Position numbers and translations under genes: made by a program. This document shows, piece after piece, positions 4,832-62,665 of a stretch of DNA of 64,000 nt. Below the pieces are notes generated by a model. It ran no database searches, was not told the origin of the DNA, and saw only the letters and a program-made list of their open reading frames with translations. Location of the stretch: positions 139,438,001-139,502,000 of the forward strand of contig NC_042997.1 of NCBI RefSeq assembly GCF_006345805.1. The letters are read 5' to 3'. The stretch is from Octopus sinensis (Eukaryota). The first letter of the stretch is position 1. Every line of letters starts with the position of its first letter.

Positions 4832-5231
4832 TCTTCTACTCTTTTACTTGTTTCAGTCATTTGACTGCGGCCATGCTGGAGCACCGCCTTTAGTCGAGCA
4901 AATCGACACCGGGTCTTATTCTTTGTAAGCCCAGTACTTATTCTATCGGTCTCTTTTGCCGAACCGCTAAGTGACGGGGACGTAAACACACCAGCAACGG
5001 TTGTCAAGCAATGCTAGGGGGACAAACACAGACACACAAACACACATACACATATATATATACATATATACGACAGGCTTCTTTCAGTTTCCGTCTACCA
5101 AATCCACTCACAAGGCATTGGTCGGCCCGGGGCTATAGCAGAAAACACTTTCCCAAGATGCCACGCAGTGGGACTGAACCCGGAACCATGTGGTTGGTTA
5201 GCAAGCTACTTACCACACAGCCACTCCTGCG

Positions 5232-9806: not shown

Positions 9807-10065
9807 ATATATATATGTGTGTGTGTGTAGATATATATATATATATATATACGTTTATATATTTGTTGTGCAAGATTTTTTATGTGAAACCGTGTGTTGA
9901 AAAAGATATTGTTATATTTCGGAATGGTCATTTTGCCAGTTTAGCCAATAAAAACACACGCACTATATATTTGGTGTTATTTTGCTTTAGTGTTATTTAT
10001 TTTTTACATTAATCTTAATCTTATTTCGGCCAGAGTTCTTTTGTCACACTTCTGTGACCGTATCA

Positions 10066-11140
10066 ACATAGTGGTAAACGCACCCCCACAAGAGAGTATT
10101 CTTGAAATAGAAATAGAAACTAATACTATGGAGAGCATCCAGCAAATAGCTAACTCCATCCACCAGAGTATTAAGGTCACAATAGACTACCCCACTAAAC
10201 ACCCCAACCATAGACTACCGGTACTGGACACAGGACTCTGGCTAGAAACTGTGAATAATAAAACCCAAATCCTTCATTGGTACTATGCCAAACCAATGGC
10301 CTCAAAATACTTGATCCACCGGAACTTAGCCATTACGGACAATGCCAAATTCAATATTTTGATGGCAGACCTCGTCAGAATAAGGAGAAATGTGTCACGC
10401 ATGTGCGAGCCTACAGAGTTAAAGAGACACATACATTTCATTCACCGCATGCAGTTCTCAGGTTACAGCCATAAATAAAGGATCAGAGTATACAAAGGAG
10501 CCATGAAGAAATTTGATAATATATTATGTAATGATAGGAATGGGATTTGCCCACTCTATAGGAACATGTCATGGAACACTATAGAAAAGACAAAGAAGAA
10601 AATAGGAAAGGCCAACTCTTGGTATGATAGCCATAAATACCAGAGTGTCATGTTCGTTGACACCACCCCTGGAGGTGAACTGGCGTACCGCTTTAGAAGG
10701 ACCCAAGACAAACTTAAGCTAAGGATTAAGGTTGTTGAAAAGCCAGGTAACCCTATCAAATCCGTAATCGGTAGAACCTACCCTTTTAGTAGAACCCCCT
10801 GTACGGATAGGTACTGTACTGTGTGTAGATTTAGCCCACAAACAAACTGTAAAGCCAGAAATGTAGTCTATAGTATAAGATGTATAGAGGGACGATGCAA
10901 TAACAAGACAACAACATACGTAGGAGAAACGGCACGAAGCATAGGAGAGCGGGTAAATGGACATTGGAGAGAACTTAAGGGAGGTAAAAGCTCATCGATT
11001 CTGTACCAACACGCCGAACAGGAACACGAGGGATCAATCAACAACATAGAAGTTAAAATCTTGTCCACACATAGAACAGATGCAACAATCAGACAATTAC
11101 AGAAGCTACACACATAATAGAAGATAAACCTAGCCTGAAT
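10066..11140 (+). pseudogene. PLE ORF remnant: RT thumb plus GIY-YIG endonuclease
   Basis: ORFs 9990-10478 (LPVLD..YYAKPMAS) and 10503-11117 (CTDRYCTVC...CKARNVVYSIRC...YVGETARSIGERVNGH...SILYQHAEQEH), separated by a single in-frame stop. Confidence 0.85.
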
Positions 11141-14140: not shown

Positions 14141-15388
14141 TTGAGTTGTCCGAAAAGTTCGTGCCGATTTATAGTAGCTTACCTTTCGACTTATTTTAGA
14201 ACATGGTTGAGTCCATAAAATAGGATTTTACTACACCTCCATTTAGAGCACAGTTTAAGCTATCTTTTAGTGGAAGAAGGTTTATGTTCCTATAACCTGT
14301 GTTAATTCTGTAAGCCTTTAAAATGGAAGATAAGAAAGTCCATTTTCGGCATTTGATGCTTTTCTTTGTCCGTAAAGGGGAAAATTCCTCACAAGCAACC
14401 AAAGAAACATGCAGTTTACGGTGATGTTTCTTTATCCGAAAGAATTGTACGGAAGTAGTTCGCAAGGTTCCAAGCTGGAGAATGTAGTCTTATTGATAAA
14501 GAGCGATCAGGCAGACCATCCAAATCAAGTCATTTATTGAGAATAACCCACATTGCACAACCCGAGAATGGGCAGAAAGCCTCAACCTATCAAAATCCGT
14601 CGTTCATGATCACCTGGTAAAGCTTGGGTATACAAATCGCTACGATGTTTGGGTACCACATGAGTTGTGTGAGAAGAACCTTTAGGATCGCATTTCCATC
14701 TGTGATTCGCTTTATAAACGGAATGAAAACGTACCTTTTTTAAAGCAAATTGTGATAGGTGATGAGAAATGGATTATCTACCGAAATATTCAGAGAAAGC
14801 GATCCTGGAGTAAGCGACATGAACCAGCCTTAGCCACACCTAAAAAAGTCTTGCTTTGTGTCTGTTGGGATTGGAAAGGAATTCTGTACTATGAGCTTCT
14901 CCCAAGTAACCAGACAATTAATTCTGAGAAATACTGCACACAACTGGATGAGTTAAAAGCAGCAATTCAAGAGAAACGCCCAGAATTGGCCAACAGGAAG
15001 GGTGTTGTTTTTCAACATAATAATGCAAGACCACACGTTTCTTTGGGAACCAGACAAAAATTACTGCAGCTCGGCTGGAATGTGTTACCCCACCCACCAT
15101 ATTCACCAGATATTGCTCTTTCGGATTTCCACTTATTCAGGTCTCTGTAGAATAGACTTAATGGTAAAAATTTCAATTCCTTGGATGACGTAAAAAGATA
15201 CCTTGATGAATTCTTTGCCATGAAACTACTTCAATTCTGGGAAGAGGTTATTTTCAAGTTAAAGGAAAGATGGAGATGCATTGCGCAACAAAATGGTTCA
15301 TATTTGGTTGATTACAAATGTAATGGCAAGTATTTATTGATCTTTTTCTTTCCTTTAAAAATCGGCACGAACTTTCCGGGCAACCCAA
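14141..15388 (+). mobile_element. Full-length mariner (DD34D) transposon with disrupted transposase
   Basis: ~30-bp TIRs ttgagttgtccgaaaagttcgtgccgattt / aaatcggcacgaactttccgggcaacccaa with TA TSD; MEDKKVHFRH at 14323, WVPHEL, GDEKW, HNNARPH, YSPDIALSDFHLF; frameshifts and stops. Confidence 0.95.
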
Positions 15389-16896: not shown

Positions 16897-17300
16897 AATG
16901 GCTGCGTGGTAAGTAGCTTGCTTACGAACCACATGGTTCCGGTTTCAGTCCCACTGCGTGGCAACTTGGGCAAGTGTCGTCTACTATAGCCTCGGGCCGA
17001 CCGAAGCCTTGTGAGTGGATTTGGTAGATGGAAACTGAAAGAAGCCTGTCGTATATATGTATATATGTATGTGTGTGTGTGTGTTTATGGCTGTGTTTGT
17101 CCACCCACCCCAACATCTCTTGACAACCAATGCTCATGCATTTACGTCCCCGTAACTTAGCGGTTCGGCAAAAGAGACCAAAAGAATAAGTACTAGGTTT
17201 ACAAAGAATAAGTCCTGGGGTCGATTTGCTCGACTAAAGGCGGTGCTCCAGCATGGCCAGAGTCAGATGACTTAAACAAGTAAAAGAGTAAAAAGAGAGA
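16897..17300 (+). mobile_element. SINE family A
   Basis: tggctgcgtggtaagtagcttgc...cagtcccactgcgtggc...aagtaaaagagtaaaaagag. Confidence 0.9.
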
Positions 17301-25568: not shown

Positions 25569-25646
<78 letters not shown>

Positions 25647-25647
25647 A

Positions 25648-25815
25648 GGTCACTCTTGAGTGCTACTGGTAACATGTAACCCAATACAACCTCTCGCATG
25701 GTCGGGTCTTCTAGCAACCCCACCAGGCTTGATTGGTGAGGAGGGGGTTGTTGGGTACCCTGCGGGATGAAAAGTAATACCTGTCAAAGGGCAGATGAAC
25801 TTCTGAACAGTCAAT
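25648..25815 (+). mobile_element. RTE-type 5'UTR fragment with a partial HDV-like motif
   Basis: Homologous to the head of 34596-35144 (-); directly follows (TG)n; the P4/J4-2 segment is deleted. Confidence 0.6.
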
Positions 25816-25819
25816 TTCT

Positions 25820-26938
25820 TTATTAACCATGAGGTTGAGAAAGAGAGGGGGCGATACGAGGACAGATAAAATAAACATTGGGGTCAGAGTATCGAATGAG
25901 ACGAAACATATGAATAAACAATTAAAATATATACAATAAAATAAGAATGAATGATTTACAAAAACTGAAGCGGAGGACGTGGTCAATCCCACAAACCACA
26001 TACTCACACAGAAGACTTTGCCTTGTCCTTTTTTTGTTCTCGTTTAGACGGGTTGTTTCACTCGCAACATACTTTACTCTTTTTTACTCTTTTTTACTCT
26101 TTTTACTTGTTTCAGTCATTCACTGCGGCCATGCTGGAGCACCGCCTTTAGTCGAGCAAATCGACCCCAGGACTTATTCTTTGTAAGCCCAGTACTTATT
26201 CTATCGGTCTCTTTTGCCGAACCGCTAAGTTACGGGGACGTAAACACACCAGCATCGGTTGTCAAGCAATGCTAGGGGAACAAACACAGACACACAAACA
26301 TATTCACACACACTTATATATATATACATATATACGACAGGCTTCTTTCAGTTTCCGTCTACCAATGCTAGGGGAACAAACACAGACACGCAAACATATT
26401 CACACACACTTATATATATATACATATATACGACAGGCTTCTTTCAGTTTCCGCTAACCAAATCCACTCACAAGGCATTGGTCGGCCCGGGGCTATAGCA
26501 GAAGACACTTGCCCAAGATGCCACGCAGTGGGACTGAACCCGGAACCATGTGGTTGGTTAGCAAGCTACTTACCAAACAGCCACTACTTGCTACAGACTT
26601 CCATCTTTTACGAAACACACTTTGCGACAGCCATTTCTTCTCCAGCCTTATTTTCCGTTTCATGTAGAAAACGAAAAAGTCGATTAGCTCGAGACTGGAG
26701 ATGAACATGCCTGTTGCAATTCCTTTCACTCTCGTCTTCCATACTACCTCTTTCGCAACAGCAACTACCGAGAGAAAACAGGCTCGCTCCTTCCTATTCA
26801 GGGAGGTCGGCGGAACGATCTTAATTACAGATTCGCTCGACAGTTATTCTCTTCTCGAATGCGACAGCAGGTGATAGACAAAAGCCCAGAGTTCAGTCAC
26901 CTTGGGGCATTGCACAATCGCGTGCATGACAGCTTCAC
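25820..26938 (-). pseudogene. Tx1/L1-clade LINE ORF2 C-terminus and 3'UTR, interrupted by a SINE
   Basis: EAVMHAIVQCPKVTELW...AVAKEVVWKTRVKG...KRKIRLEKK...FRKRW; similar to 45090-45225. Confidence 0.7.
26075..26588 (-). mobile_element. SINE family A with an internal ~96-bp tandem duplication
   Basis: caatgctaggggaac...cagtttccg occurs twice (about 26267-26362 and 26363-26458). Confidence 0.9.
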
Positions 26939-30997: not shown

Positions 30998-31552
30998 ACT
31001 AAACAGATAGAGTGGCCATGTGAACGAGAATGGGCCCCAACTATGCGAACCTGTTCGTTGGCTACGTTGAGACCCAATTATTCTCAAGTTTCACTGGTCC
31101 CACTCCTGAACTATACGGCCGTTATATTGACGACTGTATCGGTGCGACCTCACTCTCCCGCGAACATCTAGATTCCTTCCTCTCTTTTATCAAATCTTTC
31201 CATCTTGCCTCCACTTTTCCTGCACTATTTCCGACACCTCAGTCGCCTTTCTCGATATTTCGGTCAGCATTCATAACTCCACTCTCACCACCTCCATCCA
31301 CTACAAACACACAGACTCACACTCTTACCTCAACTTTTCCTCCTCCCACCCTAAACACACCAAGCTCTCCATCCCCTATTCCTAATTCCTCCGTCTACGG
31401 AGGCTCTGCAGTGACAACCATGACTTTGAGACTCAGTCTCAACTCATGGCTCGCCACTTCATCCTACGTGAATATCCCTTCACCACAATCTACACCGCCC
31501 TTGCCAGAGCACGTTCCGTGGACCATACATCTGCTCTCTACCCCCGCACCCT
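30998..31552 (+). pseudogene. Penelope-like (Neptune-type) RT fragment
   Basis: MGPNYANLFVGYVE...YGRYIDDC; after a frameshift, VAFLDI...IHYKHTDSHSYLNFSSSHPKHTKLSIPYS*FLRLRRLCS. Confidence 0.9.
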
Positions 31553-31949
31553 AGCTTATTGGTCTCTTTGAATTTCGAGCACAGGTTGGACATCCGTCAG
31601 TCGCGCTAAACTGACGAGATACAGAAAGACAGGTAATTTTTGGTTCACCTTTTCTAGAACATTCCCAGCCTCCGATTGAACATTGCCCTCTCCCAATGGA
31701 GCTGCTCGGATACCCATGCAGCAATCCTATCGCTGTTTTGAGCGACAATGAGACGACTTTATATCTAGCATTGGCCGCCTACGTGCAGGTCGCTGACTAC
31801 ATGCTTCCAACCTGTCAGGTCTGCATGCTTCACCACCTTCCTATTGCCACAGGACTTCCGGATAAAAATAAAATAAATATATACTAAAAATAAAATAAAT
31901 ATATACTGAAAATAAAATAAATATATATATAGGAGGGGAAAGTAGCACA

Positions 31950-32478
31950 AATCGAGCAGAGATTAGCAATGGCGGAGTTTTAGGTCCAATAAGGCTTGTA
32001 CGACACCTCATAGACCCTCTCCACGTTATTGATATTATTCAGAGACAAGCCAGAGTGAGATGTCTGGTGCCAATATGAGTCACAGGCTCAGGGATGCCAT
32101 GATCTCTAGCACAAACCTAAGATCCCCAAAATGTCCAATGCCATTTCCTGCATATCTGATTTTATATCAGAGTGACCTTCGCCGAGAGACATGCTTTAAC
32201 AGAAGCTGAGGGGTGTCTCACACCCAGTGGTCTTCTAGCGCGCCGGACACCATCCCGAATTTCTGCGTACCCTTGCGATTGCTACAAAGCCATTGAGCCT
32301 GCACTAGGTTCATCTGACCTTTCAACAGGTCTCGTTCTTAATCCTGCTGGGTTTCTAGCAACCCTCCTCACCAGGGTTGCCAATTGGGGTGCCGATTTAG
32401 TGCTGACAACCCCACCATGCAACAGGTTGAACTGGTTTCCATGTTACCAGTAGCACTTGCGAGAGCCTCATAAGTGAC
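31950..32478 (-). mobile_element. RTE-type 5'UTR element, diverged subfamily, with HDV-like head
   Basis: Minus strand gtgctactggtaacatggaaaccagttcaacctgttgcatggtggggttgtcagcactaaatcgg; abuts (TG/TATG)n. Confidence 0.55.
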
Positions 32479-32633
32479 TTGATATACACACATACATATA
32501 CACACACACACACACACACACATACATACATACATACATACATACATACATACATACATGCATGCATGCATACATACATACATACATACATACATACATA
32601 CATACATACATACATACATACATACATACATAC

Positions 32634-34595: not shown

Positions 34596-35144
34596 TGGTG
34601 GCGGCCCCCTCGTTATCGAGTATGGCCATTGCATGAAGCTTAATCAATGTTGTTATCGTGCAATGCCTGTGCAAAAAGATTTTTTTAAAGTGAGGAAAGG
34701 CTGTGCACTGAGTCAATCCCACTCACTAAGCAACAGCAGCCATAATCCGAAAAGAAGAACAAGCCAACATCATCGGCAACCACTGAGCCGCAGGTTTTAT
34801 GTCGGAGTTATCCCAGTTACCAGAGTTACCTTCTCCTAGAAGGATGCCCTAACAAAGGCTAGGAGTCCTTCACTCCAAATGGTTTAACCGCGCGATCGGG
34901 TATTCAGTCCGATTATTTCTATGTCCCCGCGCATGATACATCCTTAAGACATTTATTGGATGGCCGTTGACTCTCAAGAGTTCCTCCGCCCTTTGACGGG
35001 TTTTGTTTTTCATCCCGCAAGGTGTCCAATAAACACCCTCCTCACCAAGCAAGTTTGGTGGGGTTGCCGGTTTAGTCGCCGACGACCCGACCATGCAACA
35101 GGTTGTACTGGGTTACATGTTACCAGTAGCACTCGAAAGTGACC
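34596..35144 (-). mobile_element. ~550-bp non-coding RTE-derived element with a putative HDV-like ribozyme head
   Basis: RTE 5'UTR motif ctaggagaaggtaactctg; head fold at 35067-35144; (TATG)n on both sides in its sense; no ORF. Confidence 0.6.
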
Positions 35145-35163
35145 GGACATAAATACACATACA

Positions 35164-37588: not shown

Positions 37589-38265
37589 ACAGTCGTCCTC
37601 AAAATTATTCATACCCTTGTTAATTTTTGCGATTTTTTTTATTTTGGTGATGAAATGAATCCATCTTGTCAAATTTGTATATGAGTTATATGTGACCAAC
37701 AAGTGAAAGAATAACAACAATACACAATTCAAGAAATTCTTCATTTCAGGGATATTTTATTCATGGATTTTCAAAAAATGCCATGTTCAAAATTATTCAT
37801 ACCCTAGGTTTACTGAGTCAAAATATCTTTCTTTAATAGTCAAAAGCACAGCTTTTATGTTTTTTATGAATGCTTTTAGACGATTCTTGTACGTGTCCAG
37901 AAGCTTCCTACTTGTCTCTAGTGAAATGTTGGACCACTCTTCCTTGACAAAAGCCTCGAGCTGAGTCAGGCTGGTTGGTTTCCTAGCCATCACTCTGGTC
38001 TTCAAGTTTCGCCACAATTTCTCGATCGGATTAAGGACAGGACTCTGACTTGGCCATTCTAATACGTTGACATCATTGTCCTTAAAGCATTTCTTCACTA
38101 CCTTGGTGGTATGTTTCAGATCATTGTCCTGCTAGTACTTCCAGTTGTGGCCAAGTTGGAGCTTCTCAGCGGATTTTTTCACGTCTTCATCAGGGATCCT
38201 GATGCAATTCTCCTTTTTCATGATTTTTTGAACCTTGATAAGGTTCCCTGTGCACTCAGCATCCC
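37589..38265 (-). mobile_element. Tc1-like (DD34E, IR/DR type) transposon, 3' part
   Basis: QDNDLKHT..VLEWPSQSPVLNPIEKLW; terminal TA-CAGT; tcaaaattattcataccct repeated at about 37599 and 37787. Confidence 0.85.
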
Positions 38266-38279
38266 ACCACCAAAAAAAA

Positions 38280-39182
38280 AAGACTATCCATGGGTATGTT
38301 GCCCGGAAGCTTGAAGAAGACAGTAGAATTGATAGGAAGTGCAGCTTCTCTTGGACACAAGACCATTACATGACATCACACTTTGAAGGCTATACCTTTG
38401 CAATCCAGGAACAGGAGATTGCCACAAAATACCTGGTGAACAAGAGAGACCGTGACGCTTTTGTAATCCCAAGATGCAACCGCATGTGTAGGCTATGTCA
38501 TGTTTCTGTGGAGGACATCACGCATGTGACTAGCAGCTGTCCTAAAATGTCATCACGGTACTACCTCCTTATGAGGCATAATGTTGTTGCTAAAACATTT
38601 TACAATGCCATCCGCAAAAAAGACTGTCCTGAAATAAACTTAGACAATCCCTCTGTTATGAAATACATTCAAAAACACAAACTCAAGGATTACTGGTGGA
38701 ATATTCCCATTAAAACTTCTATCAAATGTAAACATAACAGACCGGATATTGTTGTTTTTGGAAAGAGGGGCAAAAGTATGTAACATCATAGAGGTCAGCT
38801 GCCCTGCATATATAAATATCTCTTTGAAAATCAAAGAAAATGAGGATATCTATGGACACCTGCTTCGAAACCTCCAGCTTCAATATCCAGACTATAAATT
38901 CATATTCATACCAATAATAATTGAAGAAATAAGTTTTGTTAGTAAATGCTTAAAGGAGAACTTGAATAAACTGGGATTTTCAGAAAGAGGAACCGACCGG
39001 CTAATTCGTATATTACAAGTGCAATCTGTCAGTGGAGCAGTAAAAATATGCACGAATTTTCTCAAGTTCCAAATGTGAATTTGTCTGTTAACTGCATCCC
39101 AAAGATGGAGCCTTGTTTCTTTCTTGGAAACTGGCTCCCTCCTCGGTGGAAGATTTATAATAATTAAAAAACTAAAAGAGAC
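38280..39182 (+). pseudogene. R4/Dong-type LINE 3' fragment (family 1, diverged)
   Basis: IHGYV..FEGYTFAIQEQEIAT..CRLC..HVTSSC..RHNVVA..KHNRPDI..IEVSCP; ends at acatacatacat. Confidence 0.9.
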
Positions 39183-42759: not shown

Positions 42760-45225
42760 CAGGGACCGGATTAGTGCACTAGTTAAGCGGAAGCAATCGT
42801 AAACCGACAGGTGACGGTTTACTTTGACCACTGAACAGATCTGAAAACTAGTCCGAAGACGTCTGTTTTCAGGGCGGCTTCCAAGTAACGATGGTCGACC
42901 CTATCGAATGCTTTCGATTGATCTAAATCGTCAACAACCGGTGGTGGGCCGCCATGAAGAGGGCGGTTAGAGTACAATCTATAGCGTTTAGCTAAAAGTT
43001 AACAATAGAAAGGAATAGCTTAGAGGGTGAACTAGTTAGCAAATTAGAAGACACCATTAGAAAGGGTATTGTGACCGATATGTTAGCGGCGAGAATGGCC
43101 CTTGACCATTTCTTCGAAGCGAAACACGAAGGTTGCGTTGTCAGAGCTAAGGCAAGTGCGCTCAGACATGAAGGAACTAAAGCTGTCCGATGGACACGAA
43201 TGGGGGAGGCGCGATATGGAAACGAAACCACGATCAGGCCTTTTACGAATTGAGACCGGCGCGTGCTACTTGGTTCTGAGCAGATGTGTGCGGCTTTTCA
43301 GCAATATTTCGCGCAGCTGTTTGGGGAGGGCAATGGGTCGACGACGGTAGTAGACTTTAGTTCGAGCCTTGACAGCCTGCTGCGACCTCGGCAGCTAATG
43401 CGAAGTTACGTCAAAAGCCGATAACGCCGCTGACAGTCGGGAGGCGATGAGTGATTGCACAAGTCACAAATCGCTCGGTTTGGATAGTCTGCCCTATGAA
43501 TTCTATGTATTCATGCCAGATTTGTTTGGCGACCTCTTGGCAGACGTCTACCACAACTGGCAACAGAGCGGGAGAATTCCTAGTGCTATTAGCCGAGGTG
43601 TAGTGATACTGCTGAGGAAGAATGCCGACAATGAGGACGTACTGGGGAATTTTCGGCCCATAACTCTGCTAAACAGAGAATTTAAGATTTTGGCCAAGGT
43701 GTTAGCGAAAAGGTTGGCGCTTGTCGTTGACAGCCTAGTCGGAGAAGCGCAATCCCGAGCAGATCTATCCACAACCTCCACCTAATGCGATACATCATCG
43801 AGAGGGTTGAGACCAAAGCTGGCTTCGGGGGTCCTCTGATCAATTTAGATCAATCGAAAGCATTCAATAGGGTCAACCATCGCTACTTGGAAACCGCCCT
43901 GAAAGCAAACGGTTCCGGACCCGTTTTCAGAAGCTGGATTGCTGCAATGCCCTACGGCATCTGTTCGGTGGTGAAAGTAAACCGTCACCTATCGGAACTG
44001 TTTGGCATCGCATGCTCGGTCCGTCAAGGTTGCCCGCTGTCGCCTTTTCTGTACATATTGGCACTCGAGCCACTGCTGCGGAAGCTGGAACAGCTAAGGG
44101 GCATCGCTTTCGAACTAGGAAGGGCAGTGTCAGCATACGCGGACGATGTCACCTCATGGTGTCGGACGCCTCTTAAGTGGAAACGGTCGGCACCATCCTA
44201 AAGGAATATGAGTCGGTTGCAGGGGCTGAAATCAATGCCGACAACTTGTTGGGTTTGCGGTTGGGCCCCTGGAGAGGCAGGTCGATGCCATCGGACGGCG
44301 TAGTCAGACTCTAGACCGACGGACCAGTTAAACTGCTCAGAGTCTTGTTTGGTTCCGACCTCCAGGTTGATAAGAACTGGGACAAGTTGGCGAACACGGT
44401 AGCCAGTCTTACCCAGAAATGGGCTGAGAGGAAGCTGTCTCTGAAAGGTCAGGCAGAGGTGACGAATACCTACATCGCCTCCGTTATAATTTATCGCCTG
44501 ACTGTTGTGCCTTGTCCCTGTTACTGCTTGACCAGGTTGAAGCGTATCCCATTTAAATTCTTGAGGAATTAACGCGGTCAGTCTGTTGCCAGCATCCTCT
44601 GAGTGGCGGATTAGGTAAGCCATGACTCCTAATGCGCAGACAGGTTCTTAGGTTACGTCACTTGCATTGATTTCTAGATGGTGAGCATATGTGGGCTCCG
44701 TTTCTGAGGCTCGTCTTTCCACAGCTCGTCTCCTTGACGAAGCTGCACTCCTAGGTGAAGAAAAGACCGAGACTGGACGCCTGGTACCTAGAATGTCGTC
44801 AGGAGCCCACAGCCCTCTACCAGTCGGGAAATGGGATCGGTGAATGTTTCACTTAAGAAATTTATAGAGGATTCGTGGCGGGGAAGTGCAACGACGTTCT
44901 CAAGGGACTCTGGGCGCCGACGAAACCGAACTGACTAGTCTGTTCCGAAGGACTTTCCAGTAGGGGACTATCATGGATAATTTCCAGATGTCCTTGGCCT
45001 GGAAGTGCTACCGGGCGTCGCTACCGATTCGACATAAACTCTACAGGGACGGATGTGCAGTCAGACGGGCCTGTCCGAGGTGCATGCAGTGGCGAAACCG
45101 TTCAGCACACTCTCGTTCAGTGTCCGGGCATTGCTGACTTGTGGGGTTATGTCGAATAGCTGCTGTCATACGTGGGACGGATCCTGTCTATCGGCCGAGT
45201 CTGTAGTGATGATTGCCCCTTTTTA
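42760..45225 (+). pseudogene. Tx1/L1-clade LINE ORF2 remnant
   Basis: SLGLDSLPYEFY..NFRPITLLNREFKILAK..LDQSKAFNRV..VRQGCPLSP..YADD..WAERKLSLKG..CPRC..ETVQH...QC. Confidence 0.9.
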
Positions 45226-50964: not shown

Positions 50965-52630
50965 CATTCAGTAGTCTTATTTTTATCACGTGCTTTCACT
51001 GCACTACCAAGTGCAGCTCTGTGTGCCTTGGGCATGTGCTGTGGTTTGTTGTGATGCTCTTATTTTTACTGTATTGAAAGTGTTTTGCGTAGGATGTGTG
51101 CGGTGCCTAGTAGTGCTAATTTCTGTATGTTATATATACTTGTTAGTCCTGGTGTTTTTGTTATATATTTGTCTGAATATTTCTTTATCATACCTAATGT
51201 GCTTAATATGATAGGAATTATTCTTTTACTCTTTTACTTGTTTCAGCCATTTGACTGCGGCCATGCTGGAGCACCGCCTTTAGTCGAGCAAATCGACCCC
51301 GGGACTTATTCTTTGTAAGCCAAGTACTTATTCTATTGGTCTCTTTTACTGAACCGCTAGTTACAGGGACGTAAACACACCACCATCGGTTTTCAAGCGA
51401 TGTTGGGAGTACAAATACAGACACACAAACATATACACACACATATATATATAACATATATACGATGGGCTTCTTTCAGTTCCCGTCTACCAAATCCACT
51501 CACAAGGCTTTAGTCGGCCTGAGGCTATAGTAGAAGACACTTGCCCAAGGTGCCACGCAGTGGGAATGAACTCTGAACCATGTGGTTGGTAAGCAAGCTA
51601 CTTACCACACAGCCACTCATGCGCCTATTGTTTGTTTGTTTTTAGACTCCACATTCGAGTTGCCTCTATTTCCAGGTTTTTGTATTTTGAAAATTTCTCC
51701 ATTTCTTTTAAAGAGAAATTGTCATCGATTAGAAAGCATTTTTTTTTCCTGGTGACCTCTGACAACTATATCCAGCCTATTGGCCTTAATTTCCCTATCT
51801 GTGTGTACTGGCATATCCCATAGTATGGTTGCTTTCTCATTTTCTGTGATCTTTTCAGGCATGTGCCAATTCTATCTTTTTCCTTTTGTTATTCTATAGT
51901 GTTGGCATAGCTTCCAGTGTAAAAAGATCCTATCTCTGTCGTGTCTGTAAATATATTCCTTCTTAGGCAGAACTGGGCAGCCAGAAACATTATGGTTTAC
52001 TGTTTCTTATCCATCTCCACATATTCTGCAGTTACTTGTGCTTCTTTTCATTGTATGTTTTTGGTAATTTCTGGTGGGAAGACTTTAGTCTTGTGTTGCA
52101 ATTAAAAATCCTTCAGTCTCTGTTTTGAGTCCTGAGCTTCTCAACCATTGCTGGGATTTTTCTTTGTCTATTTCTTTTGCATTTAGCTTAGTCTATTATT
52201 CGCCATGAAGGGGCTTTCCTTACCATCGTTTTATCCTGATCCGTTGCTGTTCCAGTTTTAGTTTGAATTTCATTTGTTTTACAGCTTTTGTTGTTTCTTC
52301 TTTTTCTTCATAGCTACTATGACTTCTTTTTTGTATTTCTCAGCTTCCTTAAAGACTGAAAGCAGAATTTTTTTGCTCGTGTTTTATGGCTATCTGTATT
52401 AGTTTCCCTTGCTTCTGAAGTAGGTATTTTTGTAGTCCTATGGTGGTTATTTTGTAATAGTTTTCTAGCTGTATAAGACCTCTACGTTGTATATATAACC
52501 TTTCTATGTCAGATTTTGGGTGGTGCATCCTAAATCCTATCATTATTTTTCTTGTTTTCCTGTCTTTCGTTTAGAGTCCAGTTAAAGATATTGTAGTTGT
52601 AACTTATAACTGGGACGGCTAAAATGTTGA
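50965..52630 (-). pseudogene. R4/Dong-type LINE 3' half (TAA-associated group), interrupted by SINE A
   Basis: MHHPKSDIERLY..GLKTETEGFLIATQD..CRICG..HNVSGC..RHD..ILWDMPVHTDREIKANRLDI..IQKLALLGTAHILRK; (TAA)n at both ends. Confidence 0.9.
51222..51627 (-). mobile_element. SINE family A, full length
   Basis: Complete head, body and tail; sits inside the Dong RLE domain. Confidence 0.9.
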
Positions 52631-57817: not shown

Positions 57818-58247
57818 AGAGAGAGAGAGAGAGAGAGATGAGAGAGAGAGATCGTCGAATATATATTACAAGTTACGACATATAACTGGTCAGAATATTA
57901 CCGTCGAGGTCACGTCGAATATTGCCACTGGTCAAAATTAACATCTTTTCAGATATGTCTGAAGAGACATCATTGTGGATAGTTAAATGCTATAAGCAGT
58001 AATATATTATTTGACAATATAAAAATATACCCGCTCTTTTATATTGAGTGTGCTTTTGTTTCTGACTTACGAACAACTGACATTACGACTGTGAGCTTGT
58101 GAGTGTATGCATGTATGTATGTATGTATGTATGTATGTATGTATGTATGTATGTATGTATGTATGCGTGCATGTATGTATGTAGGTAGGTAGGTAGGTAG
58201 GTAGGTACGTAGGTAGGTACGTACGTACATATATGTATATATTGTCA

Positions 58248-58420
58248 GGTTACTCTTTGTATTGTCCGTAACATGTAACCCAGTACAACCTGTCACATGC
58301 TCAGGTTGTCAGCGACTAAACTGGTAACCTTACCAAGCCTGCTTGAATAAAGAGGTTGGTTTTCATTTGACACCTTGCAGGACAAAAAGCAAAACTTGTC
58401 ATGGCCATCCAACAGTTGAA
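58248..58420 (+). mobile_element. RTE-type 5'UTR fragment with HDV-like head
   Basis: taacatgtaacccagtacaacctgtcacatgctcaggttgtcagcgactaaactgg, following (TATG)n. Confidence 0.6.
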
Positions 58421-61639: not shown

Positions 61640-61820
61640 AGTAGTTGAATGAATTATCTTAATATGGATAATTCGGTTAACCGATACCTGGGTAGCAAAT
61701 TCGCGTCAGAAAAACACGGTTGAAGCTACATGCCAAGGGCAGAGATCACGTGCTTTCGTGTGGAAATTTGTGTGTTTTTTTAAATACAAATAAATGTAAG
61801 AATATATATATATATATATA

Positions 61821-62276
61821 TAAATGAAAGAATGGAGTTGAACGACGATTTAACAAAATTCCTTTATTCTCGACATATGTTTCGAAGGCTGCATATTCCT
61901 AATTTCGAAGGAATAATGGGTGCATTATGCCGCCTTCTCATCAGGAAAAACAAGGAACTTATGTCAGCATCAAGATGAACAAAAACTTTTAGATGACTGC
62001 CCACACGGAGCCCATAGCGATAATCATTATCGCTATGGGCTCCGTGTGGGCAGTCATCTAAAAGCGATAATCATTATCGCTATGGGCTCCGTGTGGGCAG
62101 TCATCTAAAAGTTTTTGTTCATCTTGATGCTGACATAAGTTCCTTGTTTTTCCTGATGAGAAGGCGGCATAATGCACCCATTATTCCTTCGAAATTAGGA
62201 ATATGCAGCCTTCGAAACATATGTCGAGAATAAAGGAATTTTGTTAAATCGTCGTTCAACTCCATTCTTTCATTTA
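61821..62276. mobile_element. Perfect fold-back Penelope-like mini-element with two outward-facing hammerhead motifs
   Basis: Arms 61821-62024 and 62073-62276 are exact reverse complements; a 47-bp direct duplication lies at the centre; (TA)n on both sides. Confidence 0.9.
62148..62234 (+). ncRNA. Type I minimal hammerhead ribozyme plus AATAAA (mirror copy at about 61863-61949 on -)
   Basis: ttttc-CTGATGA-GAAGGC-g-GCATA...TATGC-a-GCCTTC-GAAA-CATATG-TC-gagaa; canonical core, GUC triplet, predicted cut after C62225. Confidence 0.85.
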
Positions 62277-62283
62277 TATATAT

Positions 62284-62665
62284 ACTAGCAGTATCGCCCG
62301 GCGTTGCTCGGGTTTGTAAGGGAAATAACTATACAGCATTTTTAGAGAGTTATAGCCAAAAAATAGCAAAAAAATGCATTAAAAATGGTAATTTTTTTTT
62401 AAATCGTTGACTCATCGTAGACATTTTTAGAGAGTTACTTCCCTTAAAAAAAATATGCATGAAAATGGAAAAAAATGATGGTAAATTATTTTTTAACATC
62501 GTAGACTCATCGTAGACGCGCGCTAATACCCAGAAGGGCTCGATATGAATCACGACTATAAGATACCCGGTTTTGGTTAAACTGCACCGCAAAATGTGGG
62601 AGTAGTTAGGAATCTAAATCGAAGGGGACAGACACTCACACAACTACAGTTTTATATATAAAGAT
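62284..62665 (+). mobile_element. Non-autonomous Helentron/Lep1-like rolling-circle element
   Basis: 5' actagc followed by hairpin cccggcgttgctcggg; internal short repeats; 3' acagac...ttttatatataaagat. Confidence 0.6.

Follow-up and report, generated by a model that had tools for sequence, protein, structure and literature searches.

A putatively folded and self-cleaving RNA head at the 5' ends of distantly related RTE retrotransposons in Octopus sinensis

Our analysis points to a portable RNA that defines the 5' end of RTE retrotransposons in Octopus sinensis and is putatively self-cleaving, a reading we put forward tentatively and with confidence a little short of even. This RNA "head" lies at the 5' end of its elements, is shared between lineages, varies by paired changes and has a sharp, inherited start. 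It would cut host read-through transcripts 4-5 nt before its first helix and thereby free the element, and one and the same head would serve a non-coding family together with four distantly related autonomous families. If the module depends on nothing but its own RNA, this would account for both the use by unrelated RTE proteins and the spread of a protein-less 555-nt derivative. Small self-cleaving RNAs fall into about ten known classes. The more far-reaching claim, that the head represents a new structural class among the small self-cleaving ribozymes, occurring in animals, which unrelated RTE lineages swap as a 5' module and which, in the element RTE-2_OV, sets the 5' end, is in our eyes possible but on balance doubtful; a new self-cleaving RNA class in an animal genome would, if true, be notable. 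Even without catalysis, a 200-nt head found across proteins of 25-47% identity speaks for a wholesale swapping of 5' modules among LINEs that are only distantly related.

The window, i.e. the whole stretch of DNA that was analysed (64,000 nt of contig NC_042997.1), contains the following elements and heads:

34597 to 35151, minus strand: full-length non-autonomous element of family A, 555 nt, in an ATGT-type microsatellite target
34956 to 35151, minus strand: shared head of ~200 nt, 79-89% identical to the 5' ends of the autonomous RTE families C, D (RTE-2_OV), E and F
31564 to 32487, minus strand: older family B/F head plus ~900 nt of 5' UTR, ending before the ORF
25641 to 25815, plus strand: isolated head of ~175 nt, helix 4 partly deleted
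58240 to 58401, plus strand: decayed head of ~160 nt, older subfamily

The sequence-only reading followed up here had proposed an HDV-like ribozyme at the 5' end of a four-copy RTE-type element. The letters it quoted are present at 35067-35125 on the minus strand, and the position at the extreme 5' end of an element holds; no RTE ORF, however, adjoins any of the window heads, and the link to RTE comes from other loci. The related heads it had named do exist, at 25641-25815 (+), at about 32487 (-) and at 58240-58401 (+), and a model built from relatives matches all three (E 1e-23 to 5e-12). The copy at 58 kb carries CCAGU/ACUGG and GUUG/CGAC as had been claimed. Instead of four copies of one element, these are heads of different families and ages.

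The family A element starts at 35151, ~26 nt upstream of the P1 helix of the proposed HDV fold. The window copy is non-coding (the longest ATG ORF has 74 codons) and bears a private A-to-C change at 35145, which breaks one pair of helix 1. A search of the octopus genome gave 285 candidates, and the 40 matches listed show 96-100% identity; 51 fetched loci have both ends and mostly measure 536-560 nt. Full-length copies sit in TATG- or TA-type microsatellites, and because of this their target duplications are uninformative. Genome-wide, a 31-nt core of the head has 1,369 exact copies and its reversed control none. Compared with the four autonomous families fetched, the 3' part of family A gave no match, and a search with its tail returned, among the matches listed, only close family A copies. 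With an RTE-derived 5' end and no ORF, family A is a bipartite RTE derivative. It resembles Bov-A, RTESINE and MAR4_MD, as described in excerpts of PMC5786205, in being short and non-coding with an RTE 5' end and a microsatellite end; it differs from them in that its 3' part is unmatched in the four fetched autonomous families and its head is common across lineages. Four family A copies (L020, L026, L062 and L085) are 647-654 nt long, with ~100 extra bases near the 3' end, and perhaps represent the ancestral, longer form.

The same head stands in front of complete RTE genes elsewhere in the genome. In family C (locus L114) it directly precedes an intact ORF of 979 aa with AP endonuclease and reverse transcriptase domains (PF03372/PF14529, PF00078), and in families D, E and F, found by protein search, it likewise precedes the ORF. 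These autonomous partners have the hallmarks of the RTE clade, namely a single AP endonuclease plus RT ORF, a microsatellite 3' end and target duplications (the latter seen in family D). Their proteins are distant, with 25-29% identity of D, E and F to C and 40-47% among D, E and F, and similarity between the family heads ends after ~200 nt. In a quick tree of 20 proteins (two rows less than half filled) the head-bearing elements fall into three separate clades; L168, the nearest relative of family C, has a different 5' end and lacks the head. From these sequence comparisons we infer that the head was exchanged between families and not inherited by common descent, the probable route being recombination or template switching.

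Family D is young, with 27 full-length copies of 98.7% mean identity, and corresponds to RTE-2_OV (PMC9115989): all five published primers tried match exactly, and the two are alike in their ORF, of 1109 aa from the first Met with a zinc finger at its end. Transcription of RTE-2_OV in the octopus brain has been reported (PMC9115989). Since the head starts RTE-2_OV, its nature bears on the source of this brain expression, either an own promoter or host read-through cut at the head. The quoted primer position puts the start of the published transcript inside the head, where the families diverge, and this start is probably an assembly edge. The word "ribozyme" is absent from the main text of that paper (PMC9115989), and in 8 of its 12 supplementary files no sequence was found. 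At one genomic locus (G000:C1:107868879, plus strand) the first bases of a family D head are briefly duplicated, a pattern expected from a template jump at the 5' end. A similar near-duplication is seen in L169, a full head homolog that heads an RTE in one unrelated public contig.

Where the element RNA begins was read from the insertions, which start 4-5 nt before helix 1. The tally covers 73 family D heads, counted by hand with a pattern that excluded C at position -8. T stands at -1 in 72 of the 73, G at -2 in 70 and TGT at -3 to -1 in 64; within this set of 64, G occupies position -4 in 33 cases, A in 25 and T in 6. The letter at -4 tracks SNPs of the element body (best Fisher p 3e-4 among 34 columns in 27 copies, which are related and non-independent) and is therefore inherited. 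Of 42 copies, 17 had a usable target duplication, and the distance from its end to helix 1 is 0-9 nt, in most cases 2-6 nt; in these copies the 5' junctions are inexact. Variable junctions have also been reported for R2 elements that cut at their own 5' end (parts of PMC3774820). Only 2 of 58 cases have G as the letter preceding the -4 purine, and most extra letters are T. For full-length L1 insertions an extra G derived from the cap is typical, according to excerpts of PMC11702581, and if RTE enzymes copy caps as L1 does, the scarcity of such a G hints at an uncapped RNA.

The same start could also be that of a promoter. On this account, which deserves serious weight even if we would sooner doubt than accept it, the head is non-catalytic: an internal RNA polymerase II promoter starts transcription at the -4 purine, and the folded RNA acts in translation, stability or packaging. 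T at -5 followed by A or G at -4 fits a pyrimidine-purine initiator, and a few further upstream letters are common to small groups of copies, a pattern expected of variable start sites. In the case of L1, LINE lineages are known to have exchanged 5' UTR promoters. LINE 5' regions in general are reported to drive transcription (excerpts of PMC5786205). The lack of an excess of G before the start speaks against a promoter, and a DNA promoter needs no compensatory changes in hairpins, although an element for translation would. A binding site specific for one protein is disfavoured by the occurrence of one head with proteins of down to 25% identity.

Covariation, with modest thermodynamic support, predicts that the head folds as a three-way junction followed by further helices, and not as an HDV fold. 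In 5' to 3' order the RNA consists of a leader, helix 1, a variable hairpin, a single C, helix 3 with its loop, CA, the helix 1 3' strand, two pyrimidines, an RCAUG segment, helix 4 and three hairpins. In the window element (all on the minus strand) these parts are:

35147 to 35151, minus strand: 5-nt leader U-R-U-G-U, the insertion start, which can pair with 35092-35096
35142 to 35146, minus strand: 5' strand of helix 1, CAGGU in the families
35130 to 35141, minus strand: variable hairpin, of 4 bp in A, C and D, each with its own paired sequence, of 10 bp in B and of 11 bp in L169
35106 to 35128, minus strand: helix 3, 6 bp around a conserved 11-nt loop, two compensatory pairs in L169
35099 to 35103, minus strand: 3' strand of helix 1, ACCUG, predicted to close the three-way junction, without covariation
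35092 to 35096, minus strand: RCAUG segment, pairing with the 11-nt loop (pseudoknot) or with the leader
35066 to 35091, minus strand: helix 4, 5 bp plus internal loop and small hairpin, holding the GG, P4, CUAA and P2 3' strand of the proposed HDV fold; a second register is possible
34995 to 35063, minus strand: three more hairpins belonging to the head, retained across six families, with weak covariation

Within the octopus genome, an alignment of five rows (family A twice, C, D and one single-copy variant) is 99.3% paired and contains three double-sided changes, all of them in the variable hairpin, where they affect three quarters of the pairs; 2 of 500 shuffled alignments reach this pairing and 12 of 500 this number of double changes. 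Helix 3 is invariant within the genome. When family B and L169 are included, pairing amounts to 97.5% and double-sided changes appear in helix 3 (two) and helix 4 (one), all three stemming from L169 alone; again 2 of 500 shuffles reach the pairing, and 17 of 500 the count of changes. Slid controls of the same fold reach no more than 46% pairing. Neither helix 1 nor the loop pairing shows a double-sided change, and the downstream hairpins, at 94.8% pairing, covary weakly (92 of 500 shuffles reach their double-change count). Folding z-scores range from -1.2 to -2.8. Predicted helix probabilities are low in several families (0.02-0.60 for helix 3, 0-0.41 for helix 4, 0-0.44 for helix 1); the rival register of helix 4 is the predicted minimum in family A, and the RCAUG segment favours the loop in L169 and the leader in family B. 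Helix 4 is mostly missing from several heads, among them the window head at 25641-25815, L062 and L063, and the deletion in L062 and L063 extends from one short direct repeat to another.

Outside the octopus genome, the 23 RTE loci listed from public metagenome contigs include one full head (L169) and one partial head (L175), and a model built from five heads (L169 included) and run against 35 sources matched only the four window heads, L169 and L175. No head homologs were found in viral contigs or in prokaryotic genomes. L169, used as a query against the octopus genome, gave no match, and a search of the same genome for the compensatory pattern returned 4 and 2 single copies and no family.

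These comparisons also bear on the idea that the head is a mere passenger with no function of its own, which was picked up in a single template switch and then copied from family to family, its helices being partly due to chance. The sequences compared include few independent ones, the z-scores are unremarkable and many genomic copies are decayed, all of which would suit a passenger. We consider it improbable nonetheless: the head was apparently captured repeatedly, at the exact 5' end of four protein lineages, a homolog exists in an unrelated organism, and one hairpin is present in three paired versions, with perfect extensions in B and L169.

Self-cleaving RNAs have precedents at this very position. 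HDV-like ribozymes are reported at the 5' ends of RTE, R2, R4 and L1Tc elements (Ruminski et al. 2011, as cited in passages of PMC5786205 and PMC6765202), and variants of twister occupy the same slot in the RTE element Perere-3 (excerpts of PMC8501958). As far as those excerpts describe it, the Perere-3 twister and the octopus head in its predicted fold are alike in being structured RNAs by which an RTE without site specificity has its 5' end defined, next to target duplications, and in forming a multi-way junction whose loop may pair downstream; the octopus head differs in having no AA start, no twister core and no Rfam twister match. With the HDV-like ribozymes of RTE, R2, R4 and L1Tc the head shares the extreme 5' slot of RTE elements and a similar order of parts, i.e. 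a terminal helix, then a helix with a loop that may itself pair, and a further hairpin followed by CUAA. Unlike them, it has neither a supported P2 nor a P3 of 3 bp with a loop of the YCC type, its P1.1 is at best possible, and its CUAA strand lies in the internal loop of a covarying helix. Of the original proposal, then, a predicted structured RNA head in a slot of self-cleaving RNAs remains, and the HDV fold is unsupported.

Several comparisons led to this outcome. The HDV pairings P1, P2, P3 and P1.1 were scored across five lineages (A, B, C, D and L169), with P4 omitted because L169 is misaligned there; 86.2% are paired, no double-sided change occurs, and 255 of 500 shuffles are equally good. 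HDV-like ribozymes keep a P2 of at least 5 bp among relatives; the proposed P2 is paired in 80% of cells, is perfect in one of the five lineages (family D), has a central mismatch in three and shows no double-sided change. HDV-like ribozymes have a P3 of 3 bp and an L3 of 7-9 nt beginning with YCC. In the proposed fold P3 has 2 bp, and L3 has 6 nt and starts with A. The proposed P1 has 4 bp, lies 3 nt from the GG and ~26 nt inside the element, so that a cut there would remove ~26 nt that full-length insertions retain. The norm for P1, as in R2 ribozymes, is 6-7 bp beginning at the element's 5' end, with the 3' strand immediately behind P3, although R2 ribozymes tolerate a 4-nt P1 (one deviant active case), a P3 mismatch and odd L3 spacing (parts of PMC3774820). 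Both pairs of P1.1 are possible in four of the five lineages, one of them being lost in L169, and both P1.1 strands fall within better-supported helices. L169 breaks pairs in each of P1, P2, P3 and P1.1. The candidate J4/2, where HDV-like ribozymes have their catalytic C with an A behind it, reads CUAA in the octopus families and CAA in L169. An upstream UACUGG, suspected in the sequence-only reading to sequester P2, is, in the predicted fold, a partner strand that is kept with two compensatory changes in L169.

A strict HDV descriptor gave no hit in nine heads. It had replaced a relaxed version, which produced many matches and no common register; with L3 allowed up to 32 nt, four of the nine heads were hit, again in registers that the families do not share. 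With pseudoknot helices unscored, the alternative reaches -17 to -21 kcal/mol, and the HDV fold, in its nested part, +0.4 to +2.1 kcal/mol. An HDV-like ribozyme, in the proposed register or a shifted one, is consequently very improbable in spite of the order GG, hairpin, CUAA and a strand able to pair upstream, a P2 that is perfect in family D, the youngest, as well as in the copy at 58 kb, the leniency of R2 ribozymes and a -4 purine that can pair with U and then GG as at an HDV cut site.

No catalytic core of any known class was recognisable in the head. Twister, twister-sister, pistol, hatchet and hammerhead (including permuted forms) were rejected, with key residues missing in a comparison by eye with the consensus cores and no Rfam match; in the twister-sister and hammerhead readings the cut would land inside the retained head. 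Rfam searches listed no ribozyme family among 150 of the 273 matches in the whole window (E up to 5), gave two chance matches and no ribozyme for the element (E up to 10), and returned five matches, none relevant, at four other loci including L169 (E up to 1), L174 and L152. L174 (positions 1-120) is another RTE 5' end and is compatible with an HDV-like fold whose P2 is long and whose L3 holds an additional hairpin, which was found when the descriptor allowed a long L3 and two P1 mismatches. Rfam left the HDV-like head of L174 unmatched, too, and its sensitivity is limited here for this reason.

The literature covered by our search holds no description of the head, most subscription papers and Repbase lying outside its scope. 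The accessible portion of a 2026 octopus repeat annotation (PMC13282606) does not contain the word "ribozyme", and cephalopod twister candidates are reported as inactive in excerpts of PMC11662667.

RTE 5' ends appear to be a rich place to look for such RNAs, as four different folded heads were seen there in this analysis. Another octopus RTE family (L150, L152, L153) has a different head ~300 nt upstream of its ORF, in which, by eye, a hairpin loop pairs over ~8 bp with a strand after a CUAAA linker; L152 is without Rfam match. The 5' UTRs of two RTEs from public contigs (L170 and L180) have a short head motif in common, which by eye looks like a small hairpin whose loop pairs behind a UAAA-type linker.

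The window contains further repeats. A perfect 222-nt inverted repeat with a 28-nt spacer lies at 61813-62284. Broken frames at 9945-11117 (+) and 31024-31554 (+) are presumably pieces of Penelope-type RT and GIY-YIG. By eye, fragments resemble a mariner transposase at 14686-15150 (+), the end of an R2/R4-type LINE at 38232-39078 (+) and an L1/Tx1-type RT at 43399-44201 (+). An abundant SINE-like repeat of ~400 nt is found in both orientations, at 4834-5223, 16899-17293, 26122-26583 and 51224-51615.
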